Assembly: GCA_964605015.1 (NCBI GenBank)
Contig: CAZSAH010000001.1
Location: forward strand, 55,168-119,167
Direction: 5' to 3'
Source: an uncultured Alphaproteobacteria bacterium
Lineage (GTDB): Bacteria; Pseudomonadota; Alphaproteobacteria; UBA9655
Length of the DNA stretch: 64,000 nucleotides
Positions within the stretch are counted from its first letter, which is position 1, and each line of letters starts with the position of its first letter. Below, piece by piece: positions 4,586 through 22,508 of the stretch. The position numbers were made by a program, and so were the translations under genes. The notes under the pieces are model-generated. The model was given only the letters and a program-made list of their open reading frames with translations, was not told the origin of the DNA and made no database searches.

Positions 4586-5308
4586 ATGAAAAGATTAGCA
4601 TTAGTGACAGGGGGAACTCGTGGAATCGGAGCCTCTATCTCTCAAAAGTTAAAAGAAGCAGGGTATAGAGTTGCCTCTGTCTATTATGGGAATGATAAGG
4701 CTGCTCAGGCCTTTCGTCAGCAAACAGATATTCCCACATATAAGTGGGATGTCAGCAATTTTAAGGCTTGTCAGGACGGCATTGCACGCGTTAGCCAGGA
4801 CCTGGGACCCATTGATATTCTTGTGAACAACGCGGGGATTACACGCGATGGGGCTCTCCATAAAATGGAGCCTGCCCAGTGGGAAGAGGTCATCCAAACA
4901 AATCTGAACTCCTGCTTTAACATGTGTCGCCACGTAATTGAGCCGATGCGCGCGCGTGGATTTGGGCGCATTATTAATATCAGCTCCATCAATGGCCAAA
5001 AAGGTCAATTTGGCCAAACAAATTATTCAGCTGCAAAGGCCGGAATTATTGGCCTTACAAAAGCCTTGGCGCAAGAGAGTGCGCTTAAGGGAATTACGGT
5101 CAATGCCATTGCCCCAGGCTATATTAACACAGACATGCTGCAAAGCATTTCAGAGCCAATCTTGGCGCAAATTACTCAGCAAATTCCTATGAACCGCCTT
5201 GGGAAACCTGATGAGGTTGCGGCCACAGTTCTTTTTCTAGTGTCCGAGGCTGCTGGGTTTATGACAGGGGCAACACTCACCCTGAATGGCGGTCAGTATT
5301 TTGTATGA
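4586..5308 (+). CDS. phaB: Acetoacetyl-CoA reductase
   Basis: Near-colinear with canonical PhaB: ALVTGGTRGIGASIS, YKWDVS, LVNNAGITRD, ISSINGQKGQFGQTNYSAAKAG and NGGQYF C-terminus. 240 aa. Confidence 0.9.
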   Translation: MKRLALVTGGTRGIGASISQKLKEAGYRVASVYYGNDKAAQAFRQQTDIPTYKWDVSNFKACQDGIARVSQDLGPIDILVNNAGITRDGALHKMEPAQWEEVIQTNLNSCFNMCRHVIEPMRARGFGRIINISSINGQKGQFGQTNYSAAKAGIIGLTKALAQESALKGITVNAIAPGYINTDMLQSISEPILAQITQQIPMNRLGKPDEVAATVLFLVSEAAGFMTGATLTLNGGQYFV

Positions 5309-5350
5309 TTTCACTATATTAAAACAACTTTAAACAAAGGAGAGACGATC

Positions 5351-5773
5351 ATGGCTAAAGACTCAAACGAAGGATTAGGTGCATTTAAGAACTTTAAATT
5401 CCCAGGCATTGACATGGAAGCGCTGATGGAAAGTCATCGAAAAAACTTAGAATTGATGAACAAAAATCAACAGATTGTTATTGAAACGACACAATCTCTG
5501 ATGGAACTTCAAAATCAATATATCAAGAATGCTTTTGAGATGTGGAATGAAAACATAAAACAATGCTGTTCTAAGTCCCCTCTTGAAGAGAAAACAGCTC
5601 AACAGTCAGAAGCTGCCCAAGAAACGACCGATAAAGCCATAGAGCATTTGCGCAACATTAATTCCGTCATTGCAAAATCAACTGAAAAAATGAATGAATC
5701 CCTCCAAAAGCGATTCAAAGAAGGCTTAGAGGAATCTTCAAGGATGACGAAGAAAGGCACAGATCGGAGCTAG
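5351..5773 (+). CDS. Phasin-family PHA granule-associated protein
   Basis: 140 aa, helical and low complexity. The ...DMEALMESHRKNLELMNKNQQIVIETTQSL... pattern is typical of alphaproteobacterial phasins. Sits next to phaB. RBS AAAGGAGAG lies upstream. Confidence 0.75.
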   Translation: MAKDSNEGLGAFKNFKFPGIDMEALMESHRKNLELMNKNQQIVIETTQSLMELQNQYIKNAFEMWNENIKQCCSKSPLEEKTAQQSEAAQETTDKAIEHLRNINSVIAKSTEKMNESLQKRFKEGLEESSRMTKKGTDRS

Positions 5774-7984: not shown

Positions 7985-8521
7985 CTACCCTTGGCGCGCT
8001 AAAAACAAAGCAGAGAGCTTGCCATCTTTAAGTTTACTCCCCCGAGATGACCCAAACTCAAAGGCATACGCGTCTTTGAGGCACGATCCAAAGATCCCCG
8101 CGATGGTTGAGATGATCCCAACGGCCTCTCCAGGAAGGCTGGTACGATAAAGGGTAATGGTAACCAAACAAGAAATGAGGCCAAATGCTGCTGACATCAC
8201 CATGATATCCGCCCTCAAATTGCTGCGTCCGGCTTGTGCGAGCGCCATATCACGCAACCGTGCGCTCTCTCGGTCCTTGTATTCGCCCATCTCTAGCTCT
8301 TGATCCAGTTTTAAAACGGCTTGTTGAAATTGGATCAGCAACTGAGGATCGGTTTTAAGGGTTTGCAGAATTTTGAGGGGATCTGTCTCATTTGTGAGGG
8401 ATTGCGCCATACTCACAACCTTGTGGGCTGTTTTTTCGCCCTGCTCTCCATTGATCCAGCGACCAAGGAGAGGCACGACTTCTGTAAGAGCCTGGGCGAT
8501 TGTAAAAAGAGGAAAGGACAT
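7985..8521 (-). CDS. Putative phage/GTA-type holin (3 predicted TM segments)
   Basis: Lies immediately downstream of the endolysin (11-nt gap containing AGGGAGG). Has an N-terminal hydrophobic segment, a coiled middle and two C-terminal TM helices (IMVMSAAFGLISCLVTITLY, AVGIISTIAGIFGSCL). Layout resembles 3-TM holins paired with GTA endolysins. The call is positional and topological only. Confidence 0.5.
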   Translation of the reverse strand: MSFPLFTIAQALTEVVPLLGRWINGEQGEKTAHKVVSMAQSLTNETDPLKILQTLKTDPQLLIQFQQAVLKLDQELEMGEYKDRESARLRDMALAQAGRSNLRADIMVMSAAFGLISCLVTITLYRTSLPGEAVGIISTIAGIFGSCLKDAYAFEFGSSRGSKLKDGKLSALFLARQG

Positions 8522-8532
8522 GAGGCCTCCCT

Positions 8533-8946
8533 TTAATCGAGTTTATAGAAAATATGGCTGCCCAGGCGTACCCTCACCTTATCAGCGCGTGCCCAATAGG
8601 GTTTGCATGAGGTTGTGTGATAATGGTCGCCCCCGCGCGTTAAATCAGGCCATAGGCCCAGAGCCACTTTTTTGGCCACTTGTTGGGCGACCTTAAAGAG
8701 GGGATCTTTATCAAGATCTTCCTGGTGGATAAGAGAACAGTTGGGGTCATCTGCGTTCCAGCAAGAAAACTGGCGGGCTTTCAAGCAAACCTCCGTTAAG
8801 CTTTGTCCATATTTTTTGTTTCCTTTGAATCGGTTGACGATTACATTTGCCACCGCAATAAGGGCGGCTATTCCTACTTTTTTGTACTCTCCGCGAGCTT
8901 CTCCATAAAGAGTACGGGCGAGGATATCATAGTCATGGTCTGTCAT
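8533..8946 (-). CDS. Cell-wall hydrolase (SleB/Hydrolase_2 family) endolysin
   Basis: LARTLYGEARGE...AVANVIVNRF...QFSCWN motif series typical of SleB-type hydrolases. Start set to ATG 8946, which forms an ATGA overlap with the stop of the upstream ORF. The track start at 8976 would overlap by 34 nt. Confidence 0.8.
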   Translation of the reverse strand: MTDHDYDILARTLYGEARGEYKKVGIAALIAVANVIVNRFKGNKKYGQSLTEVCLKARQFSCWNADDPNCSLIHQEDLDKDPLFKVAQQVAKKVALGLWPDLTRGGDHYHTTSCKPYWARADKVRVRLGSHIFYKLD

Positions 8947-9458
8947 AAGTCGGCTCCTTTTGTAAGACGTTGCCATCCTTTTCCATCGAAAAAGAGGGGG
9001 GTGATTCCGGTTTCCTCTATTAAAAGCGCAAGCTTTCCCAGATCATCCTGTGACGGCAACGTAGCCTTTTCATAGAGAGGAAGCGGAAGAGGTTTCGGAA
9101 GGGTTAAAATTTCTTGCCACAGGGGCGCATCGTGCTCCCACAACGTGCTGAGATGATCTTTTAAACAACAATAAACACCTTGGTTATACATGACAAAATC
9201 TAAGGAATGGTAAGGGGTTTCACTCGCCCAGGGACCCCGGGGCGTAAGTGTTGCCTTTGGCAAGGGGAAAGTCCCAAAGTCTGTTCCAAACGTCCCTGTA
9301 ATGGTGAGGGCGTCTCCGTGAGCGGTGATTTTTCCGATCCCTTCTCCAGAGTCAAGATGAGTTTCCAGGGCTTTCAGACGGTCCTCAAGCTCTCGGAAAT
9401 TGTCATCCATTTCCTCAATCGTTAGGGGCGCTCCTTTGTCAGTGCGATATATCATCAT
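8943..9458 (-). CDS. Phage-related hypothetical protein with CBM5/12-like aromatic motif (possible fibre/receptor-binding)
   Basis: N-terminal LTIEEMDDNFRELEDRL resembles tail-fibre N-termini. The C-terminal motif FVMYNQGVYCCLKDH...WEHDAPLW (about 9111-9203) resembles the Y-x-G-x-Y...W carbohydrate-binding pattern. GGAG RBS lies upstream. Confidence 0.45.
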   Translation of the reverse strand: MMIYRTDKGAPLTIEEMDDNFRELEDRLKALETHLDSGEGIGKITAHGDALTITGTFGTDFGTFPLPKATLTPRGPWASETPYHSLDFVMYNQGVYCCLKDHLSTLWEHDAPLWQEILTLPKPLPLPLYEKATLPSQDDLGKLALLIEETGITPLFFDGKGWQRLTKGADL

Positions 9459-9475
9459 GGGGGTCTCCGGTTAAA

Positions 9476-10345
9476 TCATGGCCTAAAACACACGGTCACA
9501 AAGGTGGGGTGACCAGGCACAGGCTCGCAAAAATAGGAAGTATACGGCGTAACGCCGAGTTCAGTTTTCAAAGAAAGGCGCGCGTGCCCTGCAGACAGAG
9601 CACTTGTGAGGCTCATGTATTCTTCAACACGGGGAAGGGGGCTAAACATAACCGTGTGGTTGAAATCGCGCCCCCCATGGGGAGGCGGCGTGTGCTGAAC
9701 CTCCAACGTTGAAGATGTATACAAGCGAATGCGCGTTTTATCGTACTCTGAGGTGAGGGCATAATAAACCTGCTCAATCTGCTCAAGGGGGACGCCGGGA
9801 TGGTAGTATCCCCCATATCCTCGCAAAACGCGGGTGTTTACCACGCCTGGAGGGGACGTGAGCACGTTTCCAGCGGCAAGCGTTGTGATGCGCACCTGGT
9901 AGGACGCACCCTCTCCACAAAAGAGTTTGACATAGAGGGGGTTTGTGTCCTCTATTTGCCCTGCAGGCATGCTTTTCCCAGAAAAGAAAAACTTTTCCCC
10001 GTGATGCATGCCCTGTCCAACGCCTGCATACTCAACCGCAATCCCTTTCCATTGGGAATTCTTAATGTCCCGCTCATATCCCTGGATGACTGTCTCTTCC
10101 TCATACAGCAGGGCTTTTTCAAGGACTTCGCCCTCTGAGATCAGCTGCACCGTTGAGGTTTTGTTCACAAGAGGAAGGGGGCGCAACACACACCGCAAAC
10201 TCAACGTTTCTGGGACTGTTTTAGAGTCCTCCATCAGAATACACGACGAGGGATGGGTGATATCAAGGCTCCCTTCTTCAAGGTTTAAGTCCACAAAGCC
10301 GGGTTCATAGCCTGTGTCAGGGGAGGAGGGGTGTAAAATACGCAT
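9476..10345 (-). CDS. Hypothetical protein (phage-derived block, function unknown)
   Basis: 289-aa ORF tightly linked (17-nt gap) to the downstream fibre-like ORF. No motif recognised. Confidence 0.5.
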   Translation of the reverse strand: MRILHPSSPDTGYEPGFVDLNLEEGSLDITHPSSCILMEDSKTVPETLSLRCVLRPLPLVNKTSTVQLISEGEVLEKALLYEEETVIQGYERDIKNSQWKGIAVEYAGVGQGMHHGEKFFFSGKSMPAGQIEDTNPLYVKLFCGEGASYQVRITTLAAGNVLTSPPGVVNTRVLRGYGGYYHPGVPLEQIEQVYYALTSEYDKTRIRLYTSSTLEVQHTPPPHGGRDFNHTVMFSPLPRVEEYMSLTSALSAGHARLSLKTELGVTPYTSYFCEPVPGHPTFVTVCFRP

Positions 10346-10369
10346 GGGATGTCCTTTCTGTTACTATTT

Positions 10370-10585
10370 ATAATGTCAGTTCGACGTCAATAATTAGGCA
10401 AATGTTTGAATTTATAGTATTGTCCTCGCATAATAATACTTGTCATCCCCGCGAAGGCGGGGATCCAGAAAGCTCTTTAAAAAAGTGATTATTCCGATTT
10501 TCTTCGACAACAGTCTGTTTTAAAAGGTTTTATCTGGATCCCCGCCTTCGCGGGGATGACAAGTGGGGGCGAGGAGACAAGATAA
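10370..10585. repeat. MITE/REPIN-like composite palindromic element (hairpin family 1 doublet)
   Basis: CTTGTCAT-CCCCGCGAAGGCGGGG-ATCC at 10439-10466 and its inverted copy at 10537-10563, separated by ~70 bp. The left outer arm ...GTCGACGTCAATAATTAGGCAAATGTTTGAATTTATAGTATT matches the arms at 2800-2858 and 6640-6700. Inserted between two co-oriented phage-side genes. Confidence 0.85.
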
Positions 10586-10616
10586 GATGGTAATAATGTG
10601 TTTTGATTCAACTCAT

Positions 10617-12443
10617 TCACTCACTCCTCGGAACACACCACGGGACGGCCATAGTCACCGGAATAAGGTGCTCGAGGGTTTCCTTTGTTCTTAAATCCTT
10701 AAAGTGAAGGCGCAAACGGGTTGGCTTAGAAGACAGAGCTTTTTGAAGAGCCCGCGGAGAGCCGTTTGCGCACGCTCCCATGTCTGATTCTTGATCTTCT
10801 GGGCCATTGATGAGCTCGATTCCTTTGAGCAGAGGCCCCATCCGGCGGGCCTGGGGTGGGGTTTTGTCATCATACCGCCAATAGGTAAGCCCTGAAGGAG
10901 TGCGACACAGGGTGTTTTCAGAAGCAAGATAGGCTCCTTCCCAATAGTCATCTCCCCGAGGGGGGACCTGAAGGGCGGGAGCATGATCGCCTTCCCGCCC
11001 CTTTGGAGGGCATAAAATCGTCACGCGCCCAAATCGTTCCCCCGTTTCACCTTTCGCAATGAGGGAATATTTGACAACTTTTCCCCGGATCTTTCCGTCT
11101 GGCAACCGAGGGTCTGATAGGACAAGAGAGGTGTCTGTTGTGATGTCTTGGACCACCTCCCATGAAGCATCAAAGCTTATGTCAATGACTCTTGCCTGTT
11201 TTGCAAGAATGGCTTTAGCCCGCTCCATGGCGTGCTCAGCGGCTTGATACCCACGATCTGTTAAAAAGAATGAGGCGCGCGCTGGATTTCCCAGGGCTGT
11301 ATGGAAAATCTTTTGAAACACCCATTTGTTTGCGTCAAAAGTAAGCCCTGCAGTGTGCGTTCCTTGGCAGCGATAAATCCCATTTTGATAAGCAACATCT
11401 GTGCCGTCTCGATAAAAGCATTCAGGTTGCCATTTATAGGCATGAGGATCGGGGTTAATGTTTTGGAGCGTAAATTCCACCACCTTATGCTCCCCTTCAC
11501 CAGGATACAGATCCTGAAACCCATGGTGAAGAGTCACGATGAGGGTTTCCTTGCGTTTTTGATGATATTGCCAACTCACCCACAAGGTGGGCTTAAACCA
11601 ATGACGTTTCACACGGTAAGGTTTTGGATCCTCTCCGTCCTCCCGTAAAGGGACCGCGGGCGAATAGGAGGGGTAGAGGGAGGACGCGGGCGTCATTTCC
11701 TTTAAATCGCTCTTAAGAATCCACACCCCAGAGCGCCCCACCCGGTGGCCCGGCGTGGGCCACTTTTTAAGGAGAGACTCCTTTGTGTAGGTGCTGACGC
11801 GAGACTGCGGAAAAGACAGGCGTATGGCAGAACTTAGGTCCGTCACCCCTTCTTCCTTTTGAACCCAATGGGCATGGACCTTAACCGTACACGCTTTTAA
11901 AGGACGTTTTGTCATGCGCAATTGAAGACTCGCTGGAAAAAATGAGTCGTGAAGTGTCAAGGTCTGGCGCCCCTCAAACCAATCAGATCGTGCCAGATCC
12001 CACGTCCGCCGATCGCAATACAGGGAGGATGTGTGTGCGTCTTGGATGCGCTCCCCTTGATCAGGTTCCTTCACCCACAAGGCATCCCAATAGGGAGGAT
12101 GACGCATCCCCTGTTGAAGGCGCTCTATCTTTTCCGAGATATCCGGCGGGCAAGCGATCAGCTCGATCTCCGCAAAGGGGCCGTCTACCTTAACGGGCCC
12201 CCCTATGAGCACCCCCTTAAAGTAAAGACTGGCCCCTTGAATACTTCCTATTGTTCCCCCAGGGGGAAGCAAGATTCCCGCTTCAACAACGGCTCTTGCT
12301 GTTGCAAAAGAATCTTCTTCTTGAGAAATTTCTAAGTCAAAAAGAGGTATATTATCTCTTTTTTCAAATACAAGATAAATATTCATTTTTATTCTCATTA
12401 AAAAAAAGGGTTGACTGTAAGAGAAAGGAGCCGTATATGACAC
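10617..12443 (-). CDS. Large hypothetical phage-derived protein with CBM5/12-like motif
   Basis: 608-aa ORF; alternative starts at Met16 and Met20 (12386). Motif YKWQPECFYRDGTDVAYQNGIYRCQGTHTAG..FDANKW (about 11319-11438) parallels the motif in ORF 8943-9458. No other family recognised. Confidence 0.5.
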   Translation of the reverse strand: MSYTAPFSYSQPFFLMRIKMNIYLVFEKRDNIPLFDLEISQEEDSFATARAVVEAGILLPPGGTIGSIQGASLYFKGVLIGGPVKVDGPFAEIELIACPPDISEKIERLQQGMRHPPYWDALWVKEPDQGERIQDAHTSSLYCDRRTWDLARSDWFEGRQTLTLHDSFFPASLQLRMTKRPLKACTVKVHAHWVQKEEGVTDLSSAIRLSFPQSRVSTYTKESLLKKWPTPGHRVGRSGVWILKSDLKEMTPASSLYPSYSPAVPLREDGEDPKPYRVKRHWFKPTLWVSWQYHQKRKETLIVTLHHGFQDLYPGEGEHKVVEFTLQNINPDPHAYKWQPECFYRDGTDVAYQNGIYRCQGTHTAGLTFDANKWVFQKIFHTALGNPARASFFLTDRGYQAAEHAMERAKAILAKQARVIDISFDASWEVVQDITTDTSLVLSDPRLPDGKIRGKVVKYSLIAKGETGERFGRVTILCPPKGREGDHAPALQVPPRGDDYWEGAYLASENTLCRTPSGLTYWRYDDKTPPQARRMGPLLKGIELINGPEDQESDMGACANGSPRALQKALSSKPTRLRLHFKDLRTKETLEHLIPVTMAVPWCVPRSE

Positions 12444-13695: not shown

Positions 13696-14211
13696 CTACT
13701 CCTCCTCCAGCTCCAAGCGCCAGCCCACAGAAGCGCCCCATTCATCCGTCTCTAAATGGTAACCTTTGACAAGCATGATGAGGGACGGACGGTAGGTGAT
13801 AAATCCTCCTGGAAACCGAGGCGGTAAAAAAACACAGTTTCCCTCGACTTTTTCTAAGGGGTACACCTTTCCCAATGAATCAAAGGCATGGCAGGAGAGC
13901 GGTTCCCTTTCTAAGAAGATAGTTAGCGCCCCCACCGGGACGGCTTGCGTCAATGATTGAACACACCCCACCTTCAGGCGTGTTCCTGCCCATAGTTTTT
14001 CAAAAGCAGGGGGCGCTTGGTCCGTACAGCTGATGGTTGACTGAAACTTCCGATGGCCTTTGTCCCCCACACACATAAGCTTTCCGTTGAGCGTACGGCG
14101 CAAGACACCTTGTGACAGAGGGGTGAGGGATTGGAGACACCCTCGGGCTGAAAAGGGAGGAAACCCATTGTCGCACCCCACCCCTTCCAAACGTAAATCG
14201 GTTTCATACAT
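13696..14211 (-). CDS. Hypothetical protein in the position where RcGTA-type clusters carry the major tail protein
   Basis: Start taken at Met17 (ATG 14211), overlapping the stop of the upstream DUF3168-like gene by 8 nt. The sequence (MYETDLRLEGVG...) does not resemble TP901-1-type tail tube proteins as I remember them. Confidence 0.45.
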   Translation of the reverse strand: MYETDLRLEGVGCDNGFPPFSARGCLQSLTPLSQGVLRRTLNGKLMCVGDKGHRKFQSTISCTDQAPPAFEKLWAGTRLKVGCVQSLTQAVPVGALTIFLEREPLSCHAFDSLGKVYPLEKVEGNCVFLPPRFPGGFITYRPSLIMLVKGYHLETDEWGASVGWRLELEEE

Positions 14212-14545
14212 GGGGCACCCGCGCCTTAATGCTGAAGGTGTGAACACGCGTTTCTTCATCCTTCAAAAGGGAAAGGCCACTTTTCATCACCTTCAGGCTT
14301 CCTTTTTGGTAGGTGTAAAGAAGGGATTCCACCCCTTTTGCGAGCTTTAAAATTTCTTTCGTTCCTGAGTAACGGCTCCAAATTTTAACCGTAAACGTCA
14401 CAAGAGTGGGCCCCCAAGGCAATCCTTGAAGCGATTGCGTGGGTTCAAGGGTAATGTAGGGATGGGGAGGGTCCGCGGGAACGTGCTGAAAGACGGGACA
14501 CACGTGTTCTAATAGTTTTGTAAGGTCTAAGAAAAGCTCACGCAT
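14204..14545 (-). CDS. DUF3168-like head-tail joining protein (RcGTA g8 position)
   Basis: 113 aa. Has the pattern ...VFQHVPADPPHPYITLEP...VKIWSRYSGTKE.... Overlaps the upstream head-closure gene by 8 nt. Gene order matches g6-g7-g8. Confidence 0.55.
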   Translation of the reverse strand: MRELFLDLTKLLEHVCPVFQHVPADPPHPYITLEPTQSLQGLPWGPTLVTFTVKIWSRYSGTKEILKLAKGVESLLYTYQKGSLKVMKSGLSLLKDEETRVHTFSIKARVPHV

Positions 14546-14858
14546 TTTTTTCCTCCACAGCTGTCATACATAAAAATTGATGGGATTGGATGGGCGCCGG
14601 CGTGCTGATCACAGACAAGCGCTTTAAGGCGTACCGAAGGGGCCATAAAAATCCTACTTTGGGAGGAAGGATGATGCCAGTGCGGACCACAACGCGGTAC
14701 AAGGACCTTTCTTGTTTGTCGATGAGTGGCCACAAACAGGCCCATACCCGCGGCCCACGTCTCCAGTTTTCGACCCAGCCCCCTTCCCCATCACCCTGTC
14801 TTTCAGGGGCCAGGAGAATCAGGCATTCTGTTAAATCTTTCGTTGTGATGGTTTTCAT
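14538..14858 (-). CDS. Phage head-closure / head-tail adaptor protein (RcGTA g7-like)
   Basis: 106 aa. Has the pattern ...QGDGEGGWVENW...VWACLWPL...E typical of HK97 gp7-type head-closure proteins. Confidence 0.7.
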   Translation of the reverse strand: MKTITTKDLTECLILLAPERQGDGEGGWVENWRRGPRVWACLWPLIDKQERSLYRVVVRTGIILPPKVGFLWPLRYALKRLSVISTPAPIQSHQFLCMTAVEEKNA

Positions 14859-14868
14859 TTTTTTCTCC

Positions 14869-15399
14869 TTACACTAATTTGAGGACTTTATAAGGCGCCA
14901 GCGATGGCAGATTGAGCGGTTGCCCTTCGTATAAAAGGCGTGTCCCCATGAGGACAGCCATTCTAAGGTCTGGAGGGAGATCAGCAGGTGTCTCGCCATA
15001 GCCCGCCCAAAAATCAAGGGAAAGGGCTTGTCCCCAAGCTTGAGAAGGCAAAATCACGTTGCCTTCCTCTGCCCTGTAAGACATGTCCTGCTCCCCGGCT
15101 TTTACCGCAGTGACCTCTAAAAGAGGCGGAAACGGCAGGGTGAGGGCCAGATCACCCACCTTGGTTTGCACCAAAGGAAAAGAAGGAGGATAGGGGGGCG
15201 TGATCTGCATCCCCCAGCCTTGCTTTAAAAGAGCGCGGCCTGTTATATTTTCCACCGCAGCGCGAGAGGAGGAAATAAAGATTTTCAGCAGATCATCCTC
15301 ATGCTCTGAGGTAATGCGCAGATAAGATTTGACCTCTTCAAGAGAAACAGGCTCTTGAAGAGGAGGAATATTGAGGCGAAGAAGCATGGGAGTCTCCAA
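14869..15399 (-). CDS. Phage gp6-like head-tail connector protein (RcGTA g6-like)
   Basis: EPVSLEEVKSYLRITSEHEDDLLKIFISSSRAAVENITGRALLKQGW matches the conserved N-terminal pattern of the gp6-like connector / phiE125 gp8 family. Confidence 0.7.
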   Translation of the reverse strand: METPMLLRLNIPPLQEPVSLEEVKSYLRITSEHEDDLLKIFISSSRAAVENITGRALLKQGWGMQITPPYPPSFPLVQTKVGDLALTLPFPPLLEVTAVKAGEQDMSYRAEEGNVILPSQAWGQALSLDFWAGYGETPADLPPDLRMAVLMGTRLLYEGQPLNLPSLAPYKVLKLV

Positions 15400-15497
15400 T
15401 TTAAAAATGAAGCGGGATGATTGGAAATATTAACCAAATATAAATACTTTTATTACATAATAAAGATATGAATATATATTATGAAAGAGAGGATACA

Positions 15498-15626
15498 ATG
15501 TTTAAATTATTATTAGTTACTCTCAGTGTATTGATTTTTATAGGGTCTGTATCCGTTCCTATGAGTGGGGCCTCTGCTTGTGATAGCAAGGGTGAGTGTT
15601 ATATGACAAATTTTCCGGACCCATAG
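15498..15626 (+). CDS. Small ORF (42 aa) encoding a signal-peptide-bearing, 2-Cys peptide; antisense to the head operon
   Basis: Below the track cutoff and translated by hand: MFKLLLVTLSVLIFIGSVSVPMSGASACDSKGECYMTNFPDP. RBS AGAGAGGA lies 7 nt upstream. Sits in an AT-rich islet, and a + strand intrinsic terminator lies ~145 nt downstream. Confidence 0.35.
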   Translation: MFKLLLVTLSVLIFIGSVSVPMSGASACDSKGECYMTNFPDP

Positions 15627-15801: not shown

Positions 15802-17013
15802 TTAAGCGCTGAAATTCACCACCTTTAAGGCCTCAAAATTCAAGACATCGCCTCCCACACGGCGGGTGGTGTAAAACTCCACATAGGGCTTAGCGCTATA
15901 GGGATCCCGCAACACTCGAATTTCACTGCGGTCTACGATCTGATAGCCTTCCTTAAAATTCCCAAAAACAATCGCCTTGGAGGGTTCGCCTGGGACAAGG
16001 GGAGGCATGTCATCAGAGACAATCACGGGATATCCCAGAAGTGTGGGCGTCATGACGCCTGCCAAGGGGGGCTCCCACAAATACCGTCCGTTCTCTGCGT
16101 CTTTCAAGCGCCGGATACGGGCTTGAGCGGCGCGCGACATCAGCCAAGAAGACCCCGGAAGGTAGGGCGGTTTTAAGGAAAAGAAGGTGTCTTGAAGCTG
16201 AATTTCCCCAACCCCTTCTGCGAAATCTCCGTTTTCGCCTGTCTTAATTTCCTCAAGACGCCCCCATACCCAATCCGCTCTCTGAGCTGTTTCATAGGCC
16301 AGAATCCCTTTGGGTGAGTTTTCCCCTGTTCCACGAATAAAAGCTGTATTTTCCATAGACGCTATTTTCTGGGCAATTTTTTGAGACAGCCACTCCTCCA
16401 CGTTTAACAGGGCATCCTCCAGCAGCTTTTGGGTGGCCCGTGGCTTGGCATACATCTCGTGAACGGGGATGCGGATTTTTGCAAGCTCTGGGGTGCGCGT
16501 TTCCGGCCGATCTTGGGTTTCTGTCACCCAACCCGCATCCATGGCATCTTTATCAATGAGCAGTTCAAGGGCAGAGGTAGAGATTTGTCGAACGCTGGCA
16601 AGGGATCGCATGACTGATGTTGCTTGTAAAGTTGCATACAAACGCTCATGAAGACCGCTAGGAACCAAATAACCCCCATCACGATCAGCCGTTGTCGAGA
16701 GTGCTTTTTTCTCATAAAGATGCAATGGGGTATCAAGGCCTTTGCGAATATAGTCCATAAAGGCATGCTGGTGGTTGGAAAATAAGTCAGCGCTTGTTTC
16801 AACCGGCGGTCGACTCGCAAACGCGTCCATTTGCTTAAGACGCTTTTCGGCCGTTTCCAGGCTTGCATCAAGGCGCGCCAGCTTTTCTTCATCCAAGGCG
16901 TCCACAGGGCGGTTACGCTCAAGGTTTGCCAAACGGTTGTCTTGTGTTGATTTATACTCTTCAAAAGTACGCGCCAAATCATCCAACGTATTTTGTACAT
17001 CATAATCGTGCAT
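15802..17013 (-). CDS. HK97-family phage major capsid protein (RcGTA g5-like)
   Basis: The N-terminal pattern LARTFEEYKSTQDNRLANLERN....DALDEEKLARLDASL is typical of alphaproteobacterial GTA-type capsids. About 400 aa. Start taken at ATG 17013, preceded by GAGGA; the track start is 17025. Confidence 0.88.
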   Translation of the reverse strand: MHDYDVQNTLDDLARTFEEYKSTQDNRLANLERNRPVDALDEEKLARLDASLETAEKRLKQMDAFASRPPVETSADLFSNHQHAFMDYIRKGLDTPLHLYEKKALSTTADRDGGYLVPSGLHERLYATLQATSVMRSLASVRQISTSALELLIDKDAMDAGWVTETQDRPETRTPELAKIRIPVHEMYAKPRATQKLLEDALLNVEEWLSQKIAQKIASMENTAFIRGTGENSPKGILAYETAQRADWVWGRLEEIKTGENGDFAEGVGEIQLQDTFFSLKPPYLPGSSWLMSRAAQARIRRLKDAENGRYLWEPPLAGVMTPTLLGYPVIVSDDMPPLVPGEPSKAIVFGNFKEGYQIVDRSEIRVLRDPYSAKPYVEFYTTRRVGGDVLNFEALKVVNFSA

Positions 17014-17039
17014 TTTTATCCTCATGTGTTGTTAGGAAG

Positions 17040-17516
17040 TTAATTCGTGGTCGGGTGACCACGACCTTTCACTTGATGAACCGTGGCGCGCGCATTCGCG
17101 CAAAAGGTCACAAGGGAAATTTCGAGAAGATCAATGTCTAAAAGAAGGCGGGCGTTGCTGGCTTTATCGCGCGTGGCTTTGAGGGCGCGAAACCCAATGG
17201 AAAGGCCGTCAATCGCTCCGTGTTTCAACAAAAGATAGGCCTCATCTGCTTGGGCAACCCCAAGGGTCAGGTGACCCTCTCCATAAAGGCCGCGCTCATC
17301 TTCATAGAGGCGTGTCCACACCCCAATGGGGCGCTTGGGGTCATGCTGCCACAGCATTTTCGGCATTTTTCCAAGCTGTCGCCAGGCGCGCAGCGTTTTT
17401 GAGAACGCGCCCTTCACCACCCGATCCTGCTGATGATCGGTCAAGTCAAAAAAACTCGCATATCCTGCGATTATCCCTTTTTTTTGAGAGGGAGTTAGAC
17501 GTATAGTGTGTGTCAT
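17040..17516 (-). CDS. HK97-family prohead protease (RcGTA g4-like)
   Basis: IAGYASFFDLTDHQQDRVVKGAF...MLWQHD...PIGVW...SIGF motif series of the S78/HK97 prohead protease. Lies directly upstream of the capsid gene. Confidence 0.85.
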   Translation of the reverse strand: MTHTIRLTPSQKKGIIAGYASFFDLTDHQQDRVVKGAFSKTLRAWRQLGKMPKMLWQHDPKRPIGVWTRLYEDERGLYGEGHLTLGVAQADEAYLLLKHGAIDGLSIGFRALKATRDKASNARLLLDIDLLEISLVTFCANARATVHQVKGRGHPTTN

Positions 17517-17544: not shown

Positions 17545-18087
17545 ATGAAAAAACTAATGGGGATGCTGGTTTGTTTGGTTGGGATGGCAGAAGTTGCGCA
17601 GGGGAGTTGCCCTACTGGTTCATATTACTGTAACATTTGCGCGCAGTGCTTCTCTAATGACGTGAAGCCGTGTCCTAATCCGTGTCCTCGAGCACCTTCG
17701 CCGATCGCTCTTCCTCTTACTCTTCCAGCACAGGTTGTTTATACTATTAAAGGGACGAACACAGTGGTTGAAGGGAAGAAGGCGTGGGAACCAACACCAG
17801 CTTTTCAGTGTCCTTCTGGTGAGCGCGTAACGCAAATCTCTTCTTCTCACCTACCTCCTGGTTACCCTTCTCAATATAGCTGGTATAGTTGTGGTAAGGC
17901 CGCCCTACCTTCTTCTCCTTCTGTCGAGGCTCTTCCGGTGCCTACAGAGGTATACAAAGGTTATGCCCTTCCTTCTGAGACTATTTTTGGATGCTCCGCT
18001 GGCACTACGCTGACACCAGCAGATCACCTTCCCACGCTTCCACCTCAATCAAAGCTTCAAGGCTGGTGGGTCTGCGCTGGTTCTTGA
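17545..18087 (+). CDS. Secreted Cys/Pro-rich hypothetical protein
   Basis: Start taken at ATG 17545 (MKKLMGMLVCLVGMAEVAQG signal peptide). The mature N-terminus is SCPTGSYYCNICAQCFSNDVKPCPNPCP and the rest is Pro/Ser-rich. Divergent from the protease start, only 28 nt away. Confidence 0.6.
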   Translation: MKKLMGMLVCLVGMAEVAQGSCPTGSYYCNICAQCFSNDVKPCPNPCPRAPSPIALPLTLPAQVVYTIKGTNTVVEGKKAWEPTPAFQCPSGERVTQISSSHLPPGYPSQYSWYSCGKAALPSSPSVEALPVPTEVYKGYALPSETIFGCSAGTTLTPADHLPTLPPQSKLQGWWVCAGS

Positions 18088-18128: not shown

Positions 18129-18196
18129 CTTGTCATCCTGAACTCGTTTCAGGATCTTATTGTCGCTGAGATGCTGAAATAAATTCAGCATGACAA
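18129..18196. repeat. Hairpin family 2 inverted doublet (REPIN-like)
   Basis: CTTGTCAT-CCTGAACTCGTTTCAGG-ATC (18129-18156) and, inverted, GAT-GCTGAAATAAATTCAGC-ATGACAAG (18170-18196). Confidence 0.85.
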
Positions 18197-18338
18197 GACG
18201 AGTGGATCCAACCCAAATGGTATCGCCCCCCAAAAAAATTCTCTTCTGTTAATAAAATATTATTAATTTATCATTATACTAAAATTAATAATAAAAACAA
18301 AAAAAGAAAAAACAATATACAAACAAAGGAGAAATACA

Positions 18339-18557
18339 ATGAAAAATTTAACCCTTCTCGCTTTTTCAGCGATCGTAATAGCAGGCATCTCAGCGGTAAG
18401 TGCTGACTGTGGATGTGGTATGGCTGCCCCTTGTGCAGCATCATGCCCATGTCCTATGGAATGTCCTTGCCAACCAACTTGTTGCCCAGCCAACAGAGGA
18501 CTCTTTGATGGCGGAACATGTTGTGGTGGACCTGCTATTCCATCCTGTGGATGCTAA
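18339..18557 (+). CDS. Secreted ultra-Cys-rich mini-protein, paralogue 1 (72 aa)
   Basis: Signal peptide MKNLTLLAFSAIVIAGISAVSA. The predicted 50-aa mature part has 13 Cys (DCGCGMAAPCAASCPCPMECPCQPTCCPANRGLFDGGTCCGGPAIPSCGC). Strong RBS AAAGGAGAA and an AT-rich leader. Confidence 0.75.
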   Translation: MKNLTLLAFSAIVIAGISAVSADCGCGMAAPCAASCPCPMECPCQPTCCPANRGLFDGGTCCGGPAIPSCGC

Positions 18558-18574
18558 GAATCACCACAAAAATC

Positions 18575-18628
18575 GTCGTTGTAAGGCCTAAATCTTCTTG
18601 AGACCGCGGTTTTACAACGACAATTTTC
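18575..18628 (+). terminator. Possible terminator hairpin after Cys-rich gene 1
   Basis: 10-bp stem GTCGTTGTAA (18575-18584) / TTACAACGAC (18612-18621) with a large 27-nt loop, followed by AATTTTC. Weak as an intrinsic terminator. Confidence 0.35.
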
Positions 18629-18773
18629 ATGATAACTCCCTGATTATTCTCGTCAAATATTCTCCCGAAAAAAAATTTTGCAATTTTAATAAATTGTTAT
18701 GAATTGCTGGATATACTGGGTTCAATAATAACAAGAAGAAGAAACAACCAACATAAAAACAAAGGAGAATACG

Positions 18774-19082
18774 ATGAGTAAAAAACTAACACTTCTGTCC
18801 TTTTTGGCAGCAATGACAATGGGACTTACTGGTGCAAATGCGGCTCTTTCATTAGAAGCTCAGCAAAACGTAGAATATTACATGGGAGCTGGCCCTTGCC
18901 CAATGGCAGCAGCCCCTATGGTAATGGCTGCGGGTCCTTGCTGCAATGCACCTTGTGCGGCGCCTTGCCCATGCCCAATGGAATGCCCATGTGTTCCCGG
19001 TTGCTGCCCAGCAATCAGAGGGCTCTTTGATGGCGGCATGTGCTGTGGTGGACGAGCAGTTCCCCCAATCTGCGGCTGCTAA
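18774..19082 (+). CDS. Secreted ultra-Cys-rich mini-protein, paralogue 2 (102 aa)
   Basis: Signal peptide MSKKLTLLSFLAAMTMGLTGANA. The C-terminal module APCAAPCPCPMECPCVPGCCPAIRGLFDGGMCCGGRAVPPICGC aligns residue for residue with paralogue 1. Same RBS context (AAAGGAGAATACGATG). Confidence 0.75.
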   Translation: MSKKLTLLSFLAAMTMGLTGANAALSLEAQQNVEYYMGAGPCPMAAAPMVMAAGPCCNAPCAAPCPCPMECPCVPGCCPAIRGLFDGGMCCGGRAVPPICGC

Positions 19083-19099
19083 GTTCAGTGATCAGTGGT

Positions 19100-19127
19100 C
19101 AGTAATCAGAATTTTTTCTGATTACTG
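19100..19127. terminator. Perfect 12-bp hairpin between convergent genes (Cys-rich gene 2 and portal)
   Basis: CAGTAATCAGAA-TTTT-TTCTGATTACTG. An outer pairing TCAGTGGTC (19092-19100) / GACCACTGA (19141-19149) reaches into the portal 3' end. No clean T-run on either side. Confidence 0.55.
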
Positions 19128-19134
19128 ATTACTG

Positions 19135-20310
19135 TCATTTGACCACTGAATCAGGGAGCGGTGGATATCCTACAAGCTCTCGTTTTTCATTGATCGTTAA
19201 AAAAGACGCCTTTTCAATTTTTCCCCATAGGGCTTCCCGTTTGGGAGCAAGGGCGGGGATTGACTCACAATCATACTCAAGGGAAAGATTGTCCCCGAAC
19301 AGGGGCGTAAGCCATTGGTTAAGCTCGCCTTTAATCATTTCTAATTGCGGCAAAATCGTATCTTCCCACAAGTGGTATCGGGCTTCCTTATAGTTGGAGA
19401 AGGTGGCATCCCCTGGCACACCCACCAACATAGGGGGGACGCCATACACTTGAGAAATCTCACGGGCAGAGAGGTTCTTGCCTTCAATAAAATCCAAATC
19501 TTTCGGAGAAAGCCCCATTTCCTTCCATTCAAAGCTTCCTTCTAACATCATGACACGCCCTGCATTGCTGCATCCTTCATAGGATTTCTTTAATTCTTGG
19601 CGCAGGCGAGTGCGTTGCTCTTCCGATAAAATTTCTCCCTCTCCCATATTGATTTGCAGGGCTCCAGAGGGCCGCCCTCCATTTTGCAAGAGGGCGAGGT
19701 TGTGGCTTGCCACAGCATTATGCTGATCAATGGCATGCGCAGCGGCTTCAATGGGGCTCATCCCATACCAATCATGGAGAGGATGGAAGGTGCGCATATG
19801 GCGGATGCGTGCTTTGCCATTCAAGGGATCCACAGGAATGCGTACGGCGCGCCCTCCAAGGGTATACTCATAAGCTTGAGGAACTCCCGAAGACCCGGGA
19901 ATGATCCGGACGCGATCTGGCCTTAAAAGGTAAAGCTCTAAGGGCTCATTTTCAGGCATGACCGCTTCGATATAAGCATTTCCCGCCAGCAGAAGGTAGG
20001 CCGTCAGGGCCTCCATAAAGCGAGACAGGCCTTGCTGCGGATTGGGATGACGCAGCAGAGTCAGAAGGGGGTGGGTGGTCAGGCGCATGTCGCCCTTATA
20101 AAGCTGCCAAGGAACGCTTGCCACACCGCGTGCGATCAACGATACACAGCGATAGACAACAATGTTTTTCTGATACCCCTCTTCGGCAAGGGTATCATAT
20201 TGGCGTGGCGTCCAGAGGGGGTGGTGCGCCCCTGTTGTGATCAAAAGAGGGGCAGTTGCGCTGGCTTTTCTTTCTGCGCGGCGCAGCCAAGAGGGCATCC
20301 AATTTTTCAT
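19135..20310 (-). CDS. HK97-family phage portal protein (RcGTA g3-like)
   Basis: 391 aa. WTPRQYDTLAEEGYQKNIVVYRCVSLIARGVASVPWQLY closely follows the conserved N-terminal pattern of GTA-type portals. Confidence 0.88.
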   Translation of the reverse strand: MKNWMPSWLRRAERKASATAPLLITTGAHHPLWTPRQYDTLAEEGYQKNIVVYRCVSLIARGVASVPWQLYKGDMRLTTHPLLTLLRHPNPQQGLSRFMEALTAYLLLAGNAYIEAVMPENEPLELYLLRPDRVRIIPGSSGVPQAYEYTLGGRAVRIPVDPLNGKARIRHMRTFHPLHDWYGMSPIEAAAHAIDQHNAVASHNLALLQNGGRPSGALQINMGEGEILSEEQRTRLRQELKKSYEGCSNAGRVMMLEGSFEWKEMGLSPKDLDFIEGKNLSAREISQVYGVPPMLVGVPGDATFSNYKEARYHLWEDTILPQLEMIKGELNQWLTPLFGDNLSLEYDCESIPALAPKREALWGKIEKASFLTINEKRELVGYPPLPDSVVK

Positions 20311-20373: not shown

Positions 20374-20441
20374 CTTGTCATGCTGAACTTGTTTCAGCAT
20401 CTCAGCAACAACGAGACCCTGAAACAAGTTCAGGGTGACAA
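20374..20441. repeat. Hairpin family 2 inverted doublet (REPIN-like)
   Basis: CTTGTCAT-GCTGAACTTGTTTCAGC-ATC (20374-20401) and, inverted, GA-CCCTGAAACAAGTTCAGGG-TGACAA (20415-20441). Confidence 0.85.
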
Positions 20442-20586: not shown

Positions 20587-21444
20587 TTATTTTTTTATCT
20601 TTTTGGCTTTGGAAACCTTGTCTCCGCTTAGGGTTTGATAAACGAGAGAGATCATTTTTATTGATACAGCCAAGAAAATAAATTGGAACATGAAACACAT
20701 AAAGGCTCCAAGGAGAACGGCTGAAGCTCCTGGATAGATCAAATCAAAAAGTATGCCCACAATTCCCAGAACGATGAGACCAACCAGCGTAAGGCCAAGG
20801 AGACCGAAAACAAGAAGAACGCTAAGACCTAACAACCGCAAGATATTTCCTTTTAAAAGCGCCCAACTTGTGCGGAGAGGATGCGGCTTATCAAGAGCTA
20901 TTAAGACATTGTAGAGGGAAATGCGTATAGCTATATAAGAGCCATACACAAAAAAGGCAGTCCCCAGAATGATATCGACAGGTATACTTGCAAAAAGGTA
21001 ATGAGCGCCAATGACAATGCCTGCCGCCAATGAGACGTAGAGTCCTCCTAAGACACTAATTAAAAGCATATACAAGATCATTTTTACAAAGCGCCAGTTG
21101 AGGTGCAGAGTCCACCATTTTGTTCCACCCTCATGAAGAACAGCGTAGCGTACGTTGTTGATATAAATGCTAAATATAAAAATGAAATAGGTGATGAAAT
21201 AAACGCTATGTGCAAGATGCATAAGGGGGTTTGATACCGTCACCTCTGTTACCTTAAGTGTATTTCCCATCATGACTTCCTGGATCTGAAAGGCCATCCC
21301 ACTATACCAATACGCAAAGACCATGAAAAGCAAGCCAAAGATCAAAATACAAAGCGGCGCAAAGGCCACCCTAAACCATTCCAATAAATGACGCCAAACG
21401 TTTGAGAAGCTGGCCTTGAATGTTTTCATAACCTGGATATGCAT
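20587..21444 (-). CDS. Orphan polytopic membrane protein (about 6-7 TM)
   Basis: 285 aa, hydrophobic throughout, with a Lys-rich C-terminus. AT-rich gene. No family recognised. Confidence 0.6.
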   Translation of the reverse strand: MHIQVMKTFKASFSNVWRHLLEWFRVAFAPLCILIFGLLFMVFAYWYSGMAFQIQEVMMGNTLKVTEVTVSNPLMHLAHSVYFITYFIFIFSIYINNVRYAVLHEGGTKWWTLHLNWRFVKMILYMLLISVLGGLYVSLAAGIVIGAHYLFASIPVDIILGTAFFVYGSYIAIRISLYNVLIALDKPHPLRTSWALLKGNILRLLGLSVLLVFGLLGLTLVGLIVLGIVGILFDLIYPGASAVLLGAFMCFMFQFIFLAVSIKMISLVYQTLSGDKVSKAKKIKK

Positions 21445-21551
21445 GTTTACCTCCCTTAAGGGTAAATATATTTTTATAGAATTATATTATGCACAAAATT
21501 GTTAAGATTAAATTAAATTTTGTAAAATTCGGGAATTTTTTTGCATCCCTT

Positions 21552-21579
21552 TTTGTCATGCTGAATTTATTTCAGCATC
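21552..21579. repeat. Hairpin family 2 single unit
   Basis: TTTGTCAT-GCTGAATTTATTTCAGC-ATC in the divergent intergenic region. Confidence 0.8.
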
Positions 21580-21679
21580 CCTACTAAACAATTAACGAAA
21601 TTTTAAGCCAAGTCATATATCGTGATCATGAGTGGATGAAAAGGATGAAACAAACCCTTAACAGAAAAGGAACTTAATA

Positions 21680-22231
21680 ATGAATAAAAAATTTCTCAAG
21701 ACATTAGCCGCTGCTGCGACTCTCACAATGACCATGGAGGGAGACATAATGGCAGACGCAAAAACCGTCCATATAGCTACAACCTCGACGCTAGCTAAAG
21801 GCCTCAAGGAGCTTCATGATCAAGAAGATTTGAGATTTGATAGCCATAAGGGGACCCAGGCAGTACTGACGCCGTATCCTACTGAGCCAACGAAGGCTTG
21901 GAATGCAGCAATAGACATACTACCCGGACGTGCCAATGGGGCGTATTGGAAGGACATTTCGCAGGATAATGAAGGCAAGACAACTATGCTCAAAATAGCA
22001 AAAGCCCAAGAGGAGGGTCACGATGAACAAAATACACCTTTAACAATTTTGCTGGGTCTCAGAGATGTACACGCTTCCGCTCTCCTGAAAACCGTCGTGT
22101 GGGTCAAGTGTTCTAGCGTCGAGCCTATAATCTTTAGATCGATGCATGATGGGACGACATTGCTTGTTGATGGCACGGTTAATCTGCACAACTTAAAGGA
22201 AACTAACTGCTCTACCACCGTCGAGCATTAA
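21680..22231 (+). CDS. Hypothetical protein (183 aa), possibly exported
   Basis: ORF with RBS AAAAGGAA upstream. The N-terminus MNKKFLKTLAAAATLTMT is weakly signal-like. No motif recognised. Confidence 0.5.
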   Translation: MNKKFLKTLAAAATLTMTMEGDIMADAKTVHIATTSTLAKGLKELHDQEDLRFDSHKGTQAVLTPYPTEPTKAWNAAIDILPGRANGAYWKDISQDNEGKTTMLKIAKAQEEGHDEQNTPLTILLGLRDVHASALLKTVVWVKCSSVEPIIFRSMHDGTTLLVDGTVNLHNLKETNCSTTVEH

Positions 22232-22307: not shown

Positions 22308-22508
22308 CCTTCAATTCTTGTGAGATATAGCCCTCTCTTGTCATGCTGAACTTGTTTCAGCATCCCATTGACAACGAGATCCTGAAACGAGTTCAGGATG
22401 ACAATTTTTGGGTGAACACCGAGATCCTGAAACGAGTTCAGGATGACAGCTTGCGAGGAGAAGTGGAGAGTGGCCATAAGGCCTCTTCAATTCTTGTGAG
22501 ATGTAGCC
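22308..22508. repeat. Hairpin family 2 triplet flanked by ~25-bp direct repeats
   Basis: Units at 22337-22364, 22378-22404 (inverted) and 22423-22449 (inverted). Flanked by CCTTCAATTCTTGTGAGATATAGCC (22308-22332) and CTCTTCAATTCTTGTGAGATGTAGCC (22482-22508). Confidence 0.85.

Follow-up and report, generated by a model that had tools for sequence, protein, structure and literature searches.

Paralogous Cys-rich genes and their family

We analyzed a 64-kb stretch of DNA from an uncultured alphaproteobacterium (hereafter, the window), focusing on two small genes on its forward strand. Open reading frame (ORF) A (18339..18557, +) encodes a 72-aa short form, and ORF B (18774..19082, +) encodes a 102-aa long form. 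An earlier note on the sequence had proposed that the two are paralogous genes for secreted mini-proteins, and both ORFs were recovered with the positions, translations, and N-termini that it had given. Their products begin with Sec-type signal peptides of the n-h-c pattern (residues 1-22 of ORF A, ..AVSA/D; residues 1-23 of ORF B, ..ANA/A; the slash marks the cleavage site), in which one or two Lys residues precede a core with a mean Kyte-Doolittle hydropathy of 2.2-2.8 over 10 residues, and which end in a small-x-small cleavage site (VSA/D and ANA/A, respectively). The n-regions of both products contain no RR motif, as befits a Sec-type signal without a twin arginine.

The predicted mature short form comprises 50 aa with 13 Cys (26%), the same figures as in the earlier note, along with 8 Pro, 8 Gly, no His, and one aromatic residue. 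It is rich in Gly, Pro, and Ala, and its Cys motifs comprise four CxC, two CC, and three CxxxC. In the window, this form has a signal peptidase I site and no lipobox, with Asp preceding the first Cys (..AVSA/DCGC). The predicted mature long form has 79 aa and 14 Cys, and ORF B likewise lacks His; its signal peptide is followed by an L[ST].E..QN.EYY.G motif, (A)APC repeats, and a C-terminal Cys/Pro module. This module is shared by the two proteins at 75% identity over 32 aa (BLASTP with composition adjustment, E=1e-9), and MAFFT widened the alignment to ~45 aa, which bore out the proposed paralogy of the C-termini. Met residues beside Cys (PMEC and GGMCC) are conserved. A six-frame scan of the window for at least 8 Cys in 40 aa returned ORF A and ORF B as the sole stretches, well outside chance expectation. 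The two ORFs were thus confirmed as real paralogous genes, and their Cys-rich products are predicted to be exported through Sec-type signal peptides. Structure prediction, one of the checks that the note had proposed, gave no fold in two AlphaFold2 runs with family alignments (pLDDT, the predicted local distance difference test, 47 and 48) and no helix past the signal peptide.

Next, we searched for relatives. ORF B retrieved nine proteins from 5.8 billion, and ORF A added two; 1.84 billion cluster representatives, searched exhaustively with a profile, gave 14 members, and a second iteration with a 28-sequence profile gave 18. Wherever a source names these proteins, the name is 'hypothetical protein'. 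Homologues with the invariant block were present in at least 14 other loci (designated below by L numbers), and carriers amounted to 3 of 185,579 species-representative genomes, all of which were alphaproteobacterial metagenome-assembled genomes and one of which was a complete chromosome of 1.46 Mb. In close relatives, this block reads CPCP.[ED]CPC.P.CCPA.RG[LI]FDGG.CCGG, usually with a C-terminal CGC. The constants of the whole family are the signal peptide, E..QN..YY.G, Cys/Pro spacers of variable length made of xPC units, and CCP..RG[LI]F; the E..QN..YY.G motif has been lost from the short form. A Sec signal with an n-h-c pattern and an AXA-type site was found in all 37 family members. Orthologues of ORF A in L006 and L008 are 76-81% identical to it, and those of ORF B in 10 loci are 50-79% identical.

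The earlier view that the module fits no assignable family was upheld. Neither ORF matched a family in Pfam, NCBIfam, PHROGs, or PADLOC, and a profile search of the PDB at E<=10 returned nothing; SmtA-type and Csp-type models were likewise unmatched. Pfam gave nothing for either window protein at E<=1 and, for 28 aligned members at E<=10, compositional noise alone (e.g., DEC-1_N, E 0.17). A scan of 2.9 million viral contigs found no relative, and motif strings and assembly or Sequence Read Archive accessions matched no paper in the literature. The window contains no rRNA or tRNA genes. As judged from sequence, ORF A and ORF B belong to a previously undescribed, clade-restricted family of Cys/Pro-rich mini-proteins with predicted Sec export.

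To assess selection on the Cys framework, which the note had suggested, we compared ratios of nonsynonymous to synonymous substitution rates (dN/dS). Between the modules of A and B, dS was 2.05 (saturated) and dN was 0.127 (dN/dS=0.06), indicating that the Cys framework was held while synonymous sites became saturated. Between orthologues, module dN/dS was 0.03-0.12 at dS 0.4-0.9 (0.03-0.09 for ORF A orthologues and 0.03-0.15 in most pairs of ORF B orthologues), far from 1; the region N-terminal to the module evolves faster (0.13-0.5). The shared Cys/Pro module is under strong purifying selection. Conservation of every Cys, as claimed for the pair, holds between the window paralogues but not across the family: two core Cys are gone from the short-form orthologues in L001, L003, and L007 (CPC to CPT/CPA/CPE and CC to SC), and one is gone from the long form in L008. 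The framework as a whole is not rigid. Cys counts range from 6 to 14 across the 37 members, of which 21 are odd and 16 even, with no parity preference.

The (xPC)n spacers also vary in length, as in the APC expansions of L008. Ahead of the module, (A)APC/AVAAPC units number two in the window (18930-18965), three in L006 (9998-10291), and four in L008 (593-910), and these differences among orthologues indicate expansion and contraction of a coding repeat. In L001 (7430-7627), L007 (9606-9809), and L003 (12-230), the short-form signal peptide ends in V/A-M-A-S-C, which is compatible with a lipobox. From this VMASC ending, the short paralogue may be a lipoprotein in that sub-clade and a soluble periplasmic protein in the sub-clade of the window; the lipoprotein model LPAM_1 gave a faint match (E=0.17) in 2 members.

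Putative expression cassettes within a GTA-like head cluster

Each gene was shown to have the layout of an autonomous cassette, with its own putative promoter, an unstructured leader, a consensus Shine-Dalgarno sequence, and a predicted terminator. The promoter element of ORF A (18249..18263, +) is TTAATAAAATATTAT, which has the form TTAA-N7-TTAT and holds a 13-bp palindrome (TAATA-AAA-TATTA); that of ORF B (18686..18700, +) is TTAATAAATTGTTAT, with two mismatches to the family consensus. A -10-like hexamer, TATACT, begins 26 nt past the start of each element (18275..18280, + and 18712..18717, +). The ORF A leader (18281..18338, +) is A-rich and poor in G/U, and the stretch 18283-18345, covering nearly the whole leader and the first codons, has a minimum free energy (MFE) of 0 kcal/mol; the A/C-rich ORF B leader (18718..18773, +) has an MFE of -0.8 kcal/mol and is no more stable than its shuffles. 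AAGGAG lies at 18326-18331 and 18762-18767, 6-7 nt before each ATG, in agreement with the shared ribosome-binding-site context reported earlier. Past ORF A, a terminator-like hairpin (18565..18631, +) is followed by UUUUC (MFE -24.5 kcal/mol, z=-5.1; 0/200 shuffles equally stable). A larger hairpin between ORF B and the portal gene (19089..19153; MFE -36.4 kcal/mol, z=-7.4) overlaps the portal 3' end and is likely a bidirectional terminator.

Alignment of ten upstream regions from five genomes showed that TTAATAAAATATTAT and AAGGAG are invariant, that TATACT stands at +26 from the element start, and that the leader is A/C-rich. The exact element precedes family genes in L001-L009, L134, and at ORF A of the window, and the orthologous ORF B promoters of L001, L006, L007, and L008 match the consensus exactly; one mismatch occurs in L132/L133 and two at ORF B of the window. 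The element is kept although neighboring synonymous sites have diverged by ~50% and capsid identity is only 65-70% for the most distant loci. The window contains no further copy, and a metagenome scan found, among the 122 matches listed, none with the -10 and ribosome-binding-site architecture or a family gene; these were chance AT-rich matches.

TTAA-N7-TTAT matches the CtrA box TTAA-N7-TTAA at 7 of 8 positions, although near-matches arise easily in AT-rich DNA. The 5' end of the element lies at about -38 from the start site as placed from the -10 box (predicted near 18287 for ORF A and 18724 for ORF B). At activated Caulobacter promoters, the 5' nucleotide of a full CtrA motif lies near -35 to -39, e.g., -39 at ctrA P2 (PMC4287350). 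We infer that the element is a CtrA-like box at an activating position. No ctrA gene is present in the window. A simple sigma-70 scan did not call the TATACT of ORF A because the -35 is poor. A MerR-type promoter, suggested by the 20-nt gap between TTAATA and TATACT, was rejected because the dyad is off-center in the spacer. Full CtrA boxes elsewhere in the window numbered 8 against 3.7 expected, with no informative pattern around the head cluster described below. Two perfect boxes (21502-21516 and 21592-21606) lie between a gene for a 285-aa membrane protein (20587-21444, -) and a divergent 183-aa ORF (21680-22231, +), and neither product has a family match.

Beyond the content of the earlier note, we identified these cassettes, the conserved promoter element, and the most consistent feature of the family, which is its embedding in a head cluster resembling that of a gene transfer agent (GTA). 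The pair sits in the gap between the genes for portal and prohead protease, on the strand opposite to the head genes. The HK97-type portal gene (19135-20310, -; PF04860 E=6e-87, TIGR01537) is tail-to-tail with ORF B, and beyond ORF A lie genes for the HK97 prohead protease (17040-17516, -), major capsid (15802-17025, -), connector (14869-15399, -), head completion (14538-14858, -), and tail completion (14204-14545, -), all assigned by Pfam and NCBIfam, followed by a 187-aa ORF (13696-14259, -) at the end of the head-neck cluster. The Pfam and NCBIfam hits fall in the canonical gene order, and synteny extends across 8 loci, including L001, L006, L007, and L132-L134. Neither a terminase nor a tape-measure gene adjoins the cluster, which is flanked by host genes (an EamA-family transporter on one side; xth, dus, and ntrYX on the other). 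GTA head remnants of the same layout, with the terminase encoded elsewhere, occur in Holosporaceae and Rickettsiales endosymbionts (George et al., PMC9254644). By gene content and order, the cluster qualifies as an RcGTA-like (Rhodobacter capsulatus GTA-like) cluster that is vertically inherited and domesticated. The statement of the earlier note on neighboring genes was therefore correct in part: no maturase, radical-SAM, or peptide exporter gene was found in the window or related loci, but a protease gene, that of the prohead protease, stands on one side.

In every related locus long enough for a judgment (14 informative loci, among them L001-L009, L011, and L132-L134), one or more family genes lie tail-to-tail with the portal gene on the opposite strand. 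The pair is in tandem in the window, L001, L003/L004, L006, L007, L008, L011, and L134, with reversed order in L134. The linkage holds with differing chromosomal flanks, such as ldh and peptidase A24 (L132/L133) or groESL (L134). The portal gene of L132 (10333-11520) and L133 (7127-8314) has an in-frame TGA (codon 13, aligned to Trp), a TAA (codon 129), and a short deletion, and the stops are identical in these two independent samples; that of L011 (5103-6300) has a frameshift near its 5' end. These inactivated portals indicate decay of the GTA-like cluster in some lineages. Despite the dead portal, all three loci have kept the Cys gene and its promoter intact, and the capsid and protease genes look intact. 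The Cys genes therefore travel with the cluster, but their upkeep does not require a functional particle. With a conserved promoter-like element, leader, and terminator hairpins, and with the family absent from PHROGs and viral contigs, the cassettes are candidates for a 'moron'-type insertion, retained even beside a decayed portal gene.

The cluster and its surroundings showed additional features. The protease-portal gap contains a gene for a third exported protein (17545-18087, +; 180 aa), with the signal peptide MKKLMGMLVCLVGMAEVAQG and an N-terminal part bearing Cys and Pro (SCPTGSYYCNICAQCF..CPNPCP); it falls outside the Cys-module family, has no Pfam, PHROG, or PADLOC match, and has its sole homologue at the same position in L006 (33%), with none in L001 or L007. 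A 52-aa ORF (15468-15626, +) with a hydrophobic N-terminal segment lies between the genes for capsid and connector and runs opposite to them. It is 70% identical in L006, and L001 has a gene call of 51 aa in the corresponding place; the ORF lacks the TTAATAAAATATTAT element and may be a second small exported 'moron' of the head cluster. A 29-nt palindromic element resembling a repetitive extragenic palindrome, GAGATGCTGAAAYAARTTCAGCATGACAA, has five intergenic copies around the cassette and portal (18168-18196, 20375-20403, 21553-21581, 22338-22366, and 22376-22404; 0 expected by chance). It is usually paired with a second hairpin, ATCCTGAACTCGTTTCAGGAT, and yields spurious ORFs (..LNSFQDL..AEMLKQVQHDK).

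With only the EamA-family transporter gene between them and the head-neck cluster, five co-oriented genes (7985-12443, -) encode products of 608 aa and 289 aa (no family), 171 aa (weak CBM_5_12), 147 aa (Hydrolase_2, a cell-wall hydrolase), and 178 aa (phrog_1544). Synteny of this block extends to L134 and, in part, to L001, L006, and L007; the five genes may form a diverged tail and lysis portion of the same GTA-like element. A very large surface-polysaccharide locus (28417-63884) takes up over half of the window, with GDP-mannose and dTDP-sugar pathways, several C- and O-methyltransferases, glycosyltransferases, and enzymes of the sugar-nucleotide kinase/cytidylyltransferase type. Polyhydroxyalkanoate genes (phaC, thiolase, reductase, and phasin) lie at 18-5773. 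If the genome is as small as that of the complete 1.46-Mb relative, the polysaccharide and polyhydroxyalkanoate genes would represent a substantial metabolic and envelope investment.

Candidate functions of the ORF A and ORF B products

We tentatively favor the reading that the two products are abundant envelope proteins that make intermolecular disulfide cross-links. After cleavage of the signal peptide, the proteins would build up at a high level in the periplasm or envelope, where the CPCP.ECPC.P.CCP and CCGG...CGC stretches would form disulfides between A and B or with other envelope proteins. The Cys-Pro stretches would be extended and stiffened by proline, as expected from their Pro content, and the cross-links would harden or remodel the envelope in the manner of chlamydial OmcA/OmcB or eukaryotic Cys-Pro structural proteins. 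The non-Cys motifs E..QN..YY.G and CCP..RG[LI]FDGG could serve as docking sites. The TTAA-N7-TTAT box over the -35 region would let a cell-cycle or developmental regulator, probably CtrA, activate expression.

Disulfides are the default state in an oxidizing compartment such as a DsbA-type periplasm. The Sec signal in all 37 members suggests delivery to this compartment, and odd Cys counts would leave unpaired thiols for intermolecular bonds. We also counted for cross-linking the variable (xPC)n spacers, which are typical of low-complexity structural proteins, the lack of a predicted fold beyond the signal helix, the tandem arrangement of a short and a long form in at least seven genomes, and the putative VMASC lipobox in one sub-clade. 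The invariant AAGGAG, leaders with an MFE of ~0, and strong predicted terminators would be signals for high expression, and the promoter appears to be of a developmental rather than a metal-sensor type. Among the Holosporaceae and Rickettsiales, some members differentiate into infectious forms in which small periplasmic proteins are abundant (PMC11909080).

Several points weigh against cross-linking. The composition (CxC, CC, CxxxC, no His, few aromatics, and Met by Cys) looks equally metallothionein-like, and the non-Cys residues of the module are conserved more tightly than a generic cross-linker would need. The putative CtrA assignment is a 7/8 match in AT-rich DNA, and the lipobox-like sequence is confined to one sub-clade to which the window does not belong. 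OmcA/OmcB and the keratin-associated or sperm-capsule proteins offer an analogy rather than homology, and the Pfam model Chlam_OMP3 was matched neither by the window proteins nor by 28 members.

A possibility almost as likely is a Sec-exported, metallothionein-like buffer, in which reduced Cys, aided by the conserved Met, would form periplasmic thiolate clusters around Cu(I), Zn(II), or Cd(II). Such a buffer would shield a protist-associated bacterium from metal poisoning in the phagosome or would store metal. The mature short form, with its 26% Cys, CxC, CC, and CxxxC motifs, absence of His, and single aromatic residue, falls within the operational definition of a metallothionein (small, >15-20% Cys in CxC/CC, few aromatics). 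A Cys number that is variable and often odd, strictly conserved core spacing, Met beside Cys, and the absence of a predicted fold without ligand would all suit metal binding. The N-terminus DCGCG..A..C resembles that of fungal Cu-metallothioneins, and Tat-exported Csp1 provides a precedent for Cu(I) storage by Cys thiolates in the periplasm. However, the characterized bacterial metallothioneins are, to our knowledge, all cytoplasmic, whereas these proteins are predicted to be exported, and Sec would bring an unfolded apo-protein into an oxidizing compartment. Pfam metallothionein models were unmatched (for Metallothio_Pro, by the window proteins at E<=1 and by 28 members at E<=10), and the neighborhoods of about 14 loci contain no metal-homeostasis gene. 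As judged from the upstream alignment, the operator is not placed between -35 and -10 as in MerR/CueR-type promoters and is unlike the GC-containing sites of CueR or CsoR. Metallothioneins also rarely keep non-Cys motifs such as RGLFDGG and QN.EYY. Cu buffering in the periplasm is known from proteins that rely on Met and His, on modified Cys (bufferins; PMC11626156), or on export by Tat. The cross-linking reading was placed slightly ahead of the metal buffer because of the export route and the promoter.

It is unlikely, in our judgment, that the pair represents a new class of Sec-exported, unmodified, thiol-rich proteins that is fixed in the GTA-like head cluster, wired to the CtrA circuit, and used to build either a chlamydia-style envelope or a periplasmic metallothionein. 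The host lineage would then consist of small-genome Alphaproteobacteria that are probably protist-associated.

The position in the head cluster raised the question of an accessory to the GTA-like particle, that is, an envelope protein for release or uptake (spanin-like or receptor-like) or convergent, strongly transcribed cassettes that gate read-through from the portal gene to the protease and capsid genes; we consider this improbable. Every locus, even with different flanks, has the genes in the portal-protease gap, the hairpin is common to the portal 3' end, and both promoters carry a CtrA-like box. CtrA is reported to be needed for GTA production in Rhodobacter (PMC3999984 and PMC6363796). 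Against this role, the Cys gene and promoter outlived the portal in L132/L133 and L011, PHROGs gave no match and 2.9 million viral contigs no homologue, and the genes run opposite to the head genes under putative promoters and terminators of their own. o-Spanins are small, Pro-rich, Cys-bonded, and exported; the gap, however, contains no i-spanin, holin, or endolysin partner, and thirteen Cys are unlike any known spanin. A spanin was rejected for this lack of a partner gene, for the excess of Cys, and for the absence of a lipobox from the window proteins.

A secreted disulfide-rich effector, toxin, or antimicrobial peptide directed against a eukaryotic host or competitors has a similarly slim chance. 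The proteins are small and predicted to be exported, they evolve fast outside the core (pre-module dN/dS 0.2-0.6), and they are restricted to one clade in which the complete relative genome of 1.46 Mb is consistent with host association. The disulfide-knotted toxin that the earlier note had listed as an option is disfavored because the Cys count is variable and free of parity (6-14, 21 odd and 16 even, with no even-number bias and hence no fixed framework), the xPC spacers are expandable, and no fold is predicted. Furthermore, none of the loci links the genes to a secretion system, immunity gene, or exporter, a Sec signal by itself takes a protein no farther than the periplasm, and the most conserved part is under strong purifying rather than diversifying selection.

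The weakest candidate is a bufferin-like precursor of a ribosomally produced peptide with post-translational modification (RiPP), with Cys converted (e.g., to thiooxazoles) by an MNIO (multinuclear non-heme iron oxidative enzyme) or other maturase encoded elsewhere and E..QN..YY.G as the recognition sequence. Bufferin precursors likewise combine a Sec signal peptide with conserved Cys (PMC11626156 and PMC12452194), and the long form has a leader/core-like layout with a conserved N-terminal motif before a variable Cys-rich region; nevertheless, this origin is very improbable because no maturase or peptide exporter was found in the window (no MNIO (DUF692), DUF2063, radical-SAM, YcaO, lanthipeptide, or peptide-exporter gene among the scanned ORFs) or in up to 20 kb of context of related loci (no MNIO/DUF2063 partner in precomputed Pfam calls for L001, L011, and L132-L134), whereas such precursors are almost always clustered with their enzymes. 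The DUF2282 and EGKCG families were unmatched in Pfam, no EGKCG motif is visible in the sequences, and the short form is equally conserved yet lacks the putative recognition motif.

Should the proteins prove to cross-link the envelope, disulfide-hardened envelopes would have evolved independently in alphaproteobacterial symbionts, and the family would be a marker for a hidden developmental stage; as a new class, they would provide the first chlamydia-style disulfide-cross-linked envelope outside the Chlamydiae, switched on in a dispersal or infectious stage with the particle genes. If they bind metal, they would be the first unmodified, Sec-exported, and genuinely periplasmic metallothioneins and would challenge the view that free-thiol metal buffers cannot work in the periplasm. 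Either way, they would be the only conserved non-phage cargo of GTA head remnants kept by reduced endosymbionts, and the invariant promoter element offers a handle on the regulation of these remnant clusters and their cargo.

Comparison with known systems

Cross-linking of the envelope by intermolecular disulfides under developmental control is known from chlamydial OmcA and OmcB. As with the small lipoprotein OmcA and its larger partner, the window genes form a tandem pair, small and large, for very Cys-rich proteins with predicted export in a bacterium that may be host-associated, and the short form of one sub-clade (L001, L003, and L007) has the lipobox-like VMASC. In contrast, there is no sequence similarity to OmcA/OmcB or match to Chlam_OMP3, the short form of the window has a signal peptidase I site without a lipobox and +1 Cys, the mature long form has 79 aa against ~60 kDa for OmcB, and a developmental cycle, established in Chlamydiae, is putative for the window organism. 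In eukaryotic Cys-Pro structural proteins, repeats form inter-chain disulfide ladders. Ultra-high-sulfur keratin-associated proteins, SMCP, and the IgG hinge (CPPCP) share with the window proteins CPCP and CCxP, a likeness of composition and motif only; unlike these, the window proteins are bacterial and have a signal peptide, and no homology was detected.

Among metal-binding proteins, metallothioneins (SmtA/BmtA, MymT, and the fungal Cu type) resemble the window proteins in low mass, ~26% Cys in CxC and CC, few aromatics and His, and the absence of a metal-free fold. They differ in being cytoplasmic, whereas the ORF A and ORF B products are predicted to be Sec-exported, are Pro-rich, and have strongly conserved non-Cys motifs; the His ligands and zinc-finger-like fold of SmtA are also absent. 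Csp1 is a Tat-exported four-helix bundle lined with 13 Cys. The window proteins resemble it in export and in ~13 Cys that could hold soft metals outside the cytoplasm, but have no predicted helix past the signal peptide, use Sec rather than Tat, and match no PDB profile. Bufferins, which are MNIO-modified periplasmic RiPP metallophores, similarly combine a Sec signal peptide with a Cys-bearing periplasmic peptide; they belong to a different precursor family, and the window and related loci have no MNIO/DUF2063 partner.

With regard to the phage-derived setting, o-spanins (Rz1-like), outer-membrane lipoproteins whose genes accompany or lie inside an i-spanin gene beside those for holin and endolysin, differ from the window proteins, which have no lipobox and whose neighbors are the portal and protease genes. 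The morons of phages (lambda bor and lom; the HK97 family) are units of promoter, gene, and terminator inserted between normally adjacent structural genes, and an exported protein encoded by a moron serves the host cell, not the virion. The cassettes likewise have the layout of self-contained units between two structural genes with a predicted exported product; unlike morons, they are carried by a domesticated, vertically inherited GTA-like remnant rather than an active prophage, and the putative insertion is ancient, clade-fixed, and duplicated, with its genes oriented against the direction of structural-gene transcription. Precedents in kind exist both for small Cys-rich exported proteins and for moron-type insertions into phage-derived clusters; what is new is the combination of features, the fixed site within GTA head remnants, and the invariant CtrA-like element.

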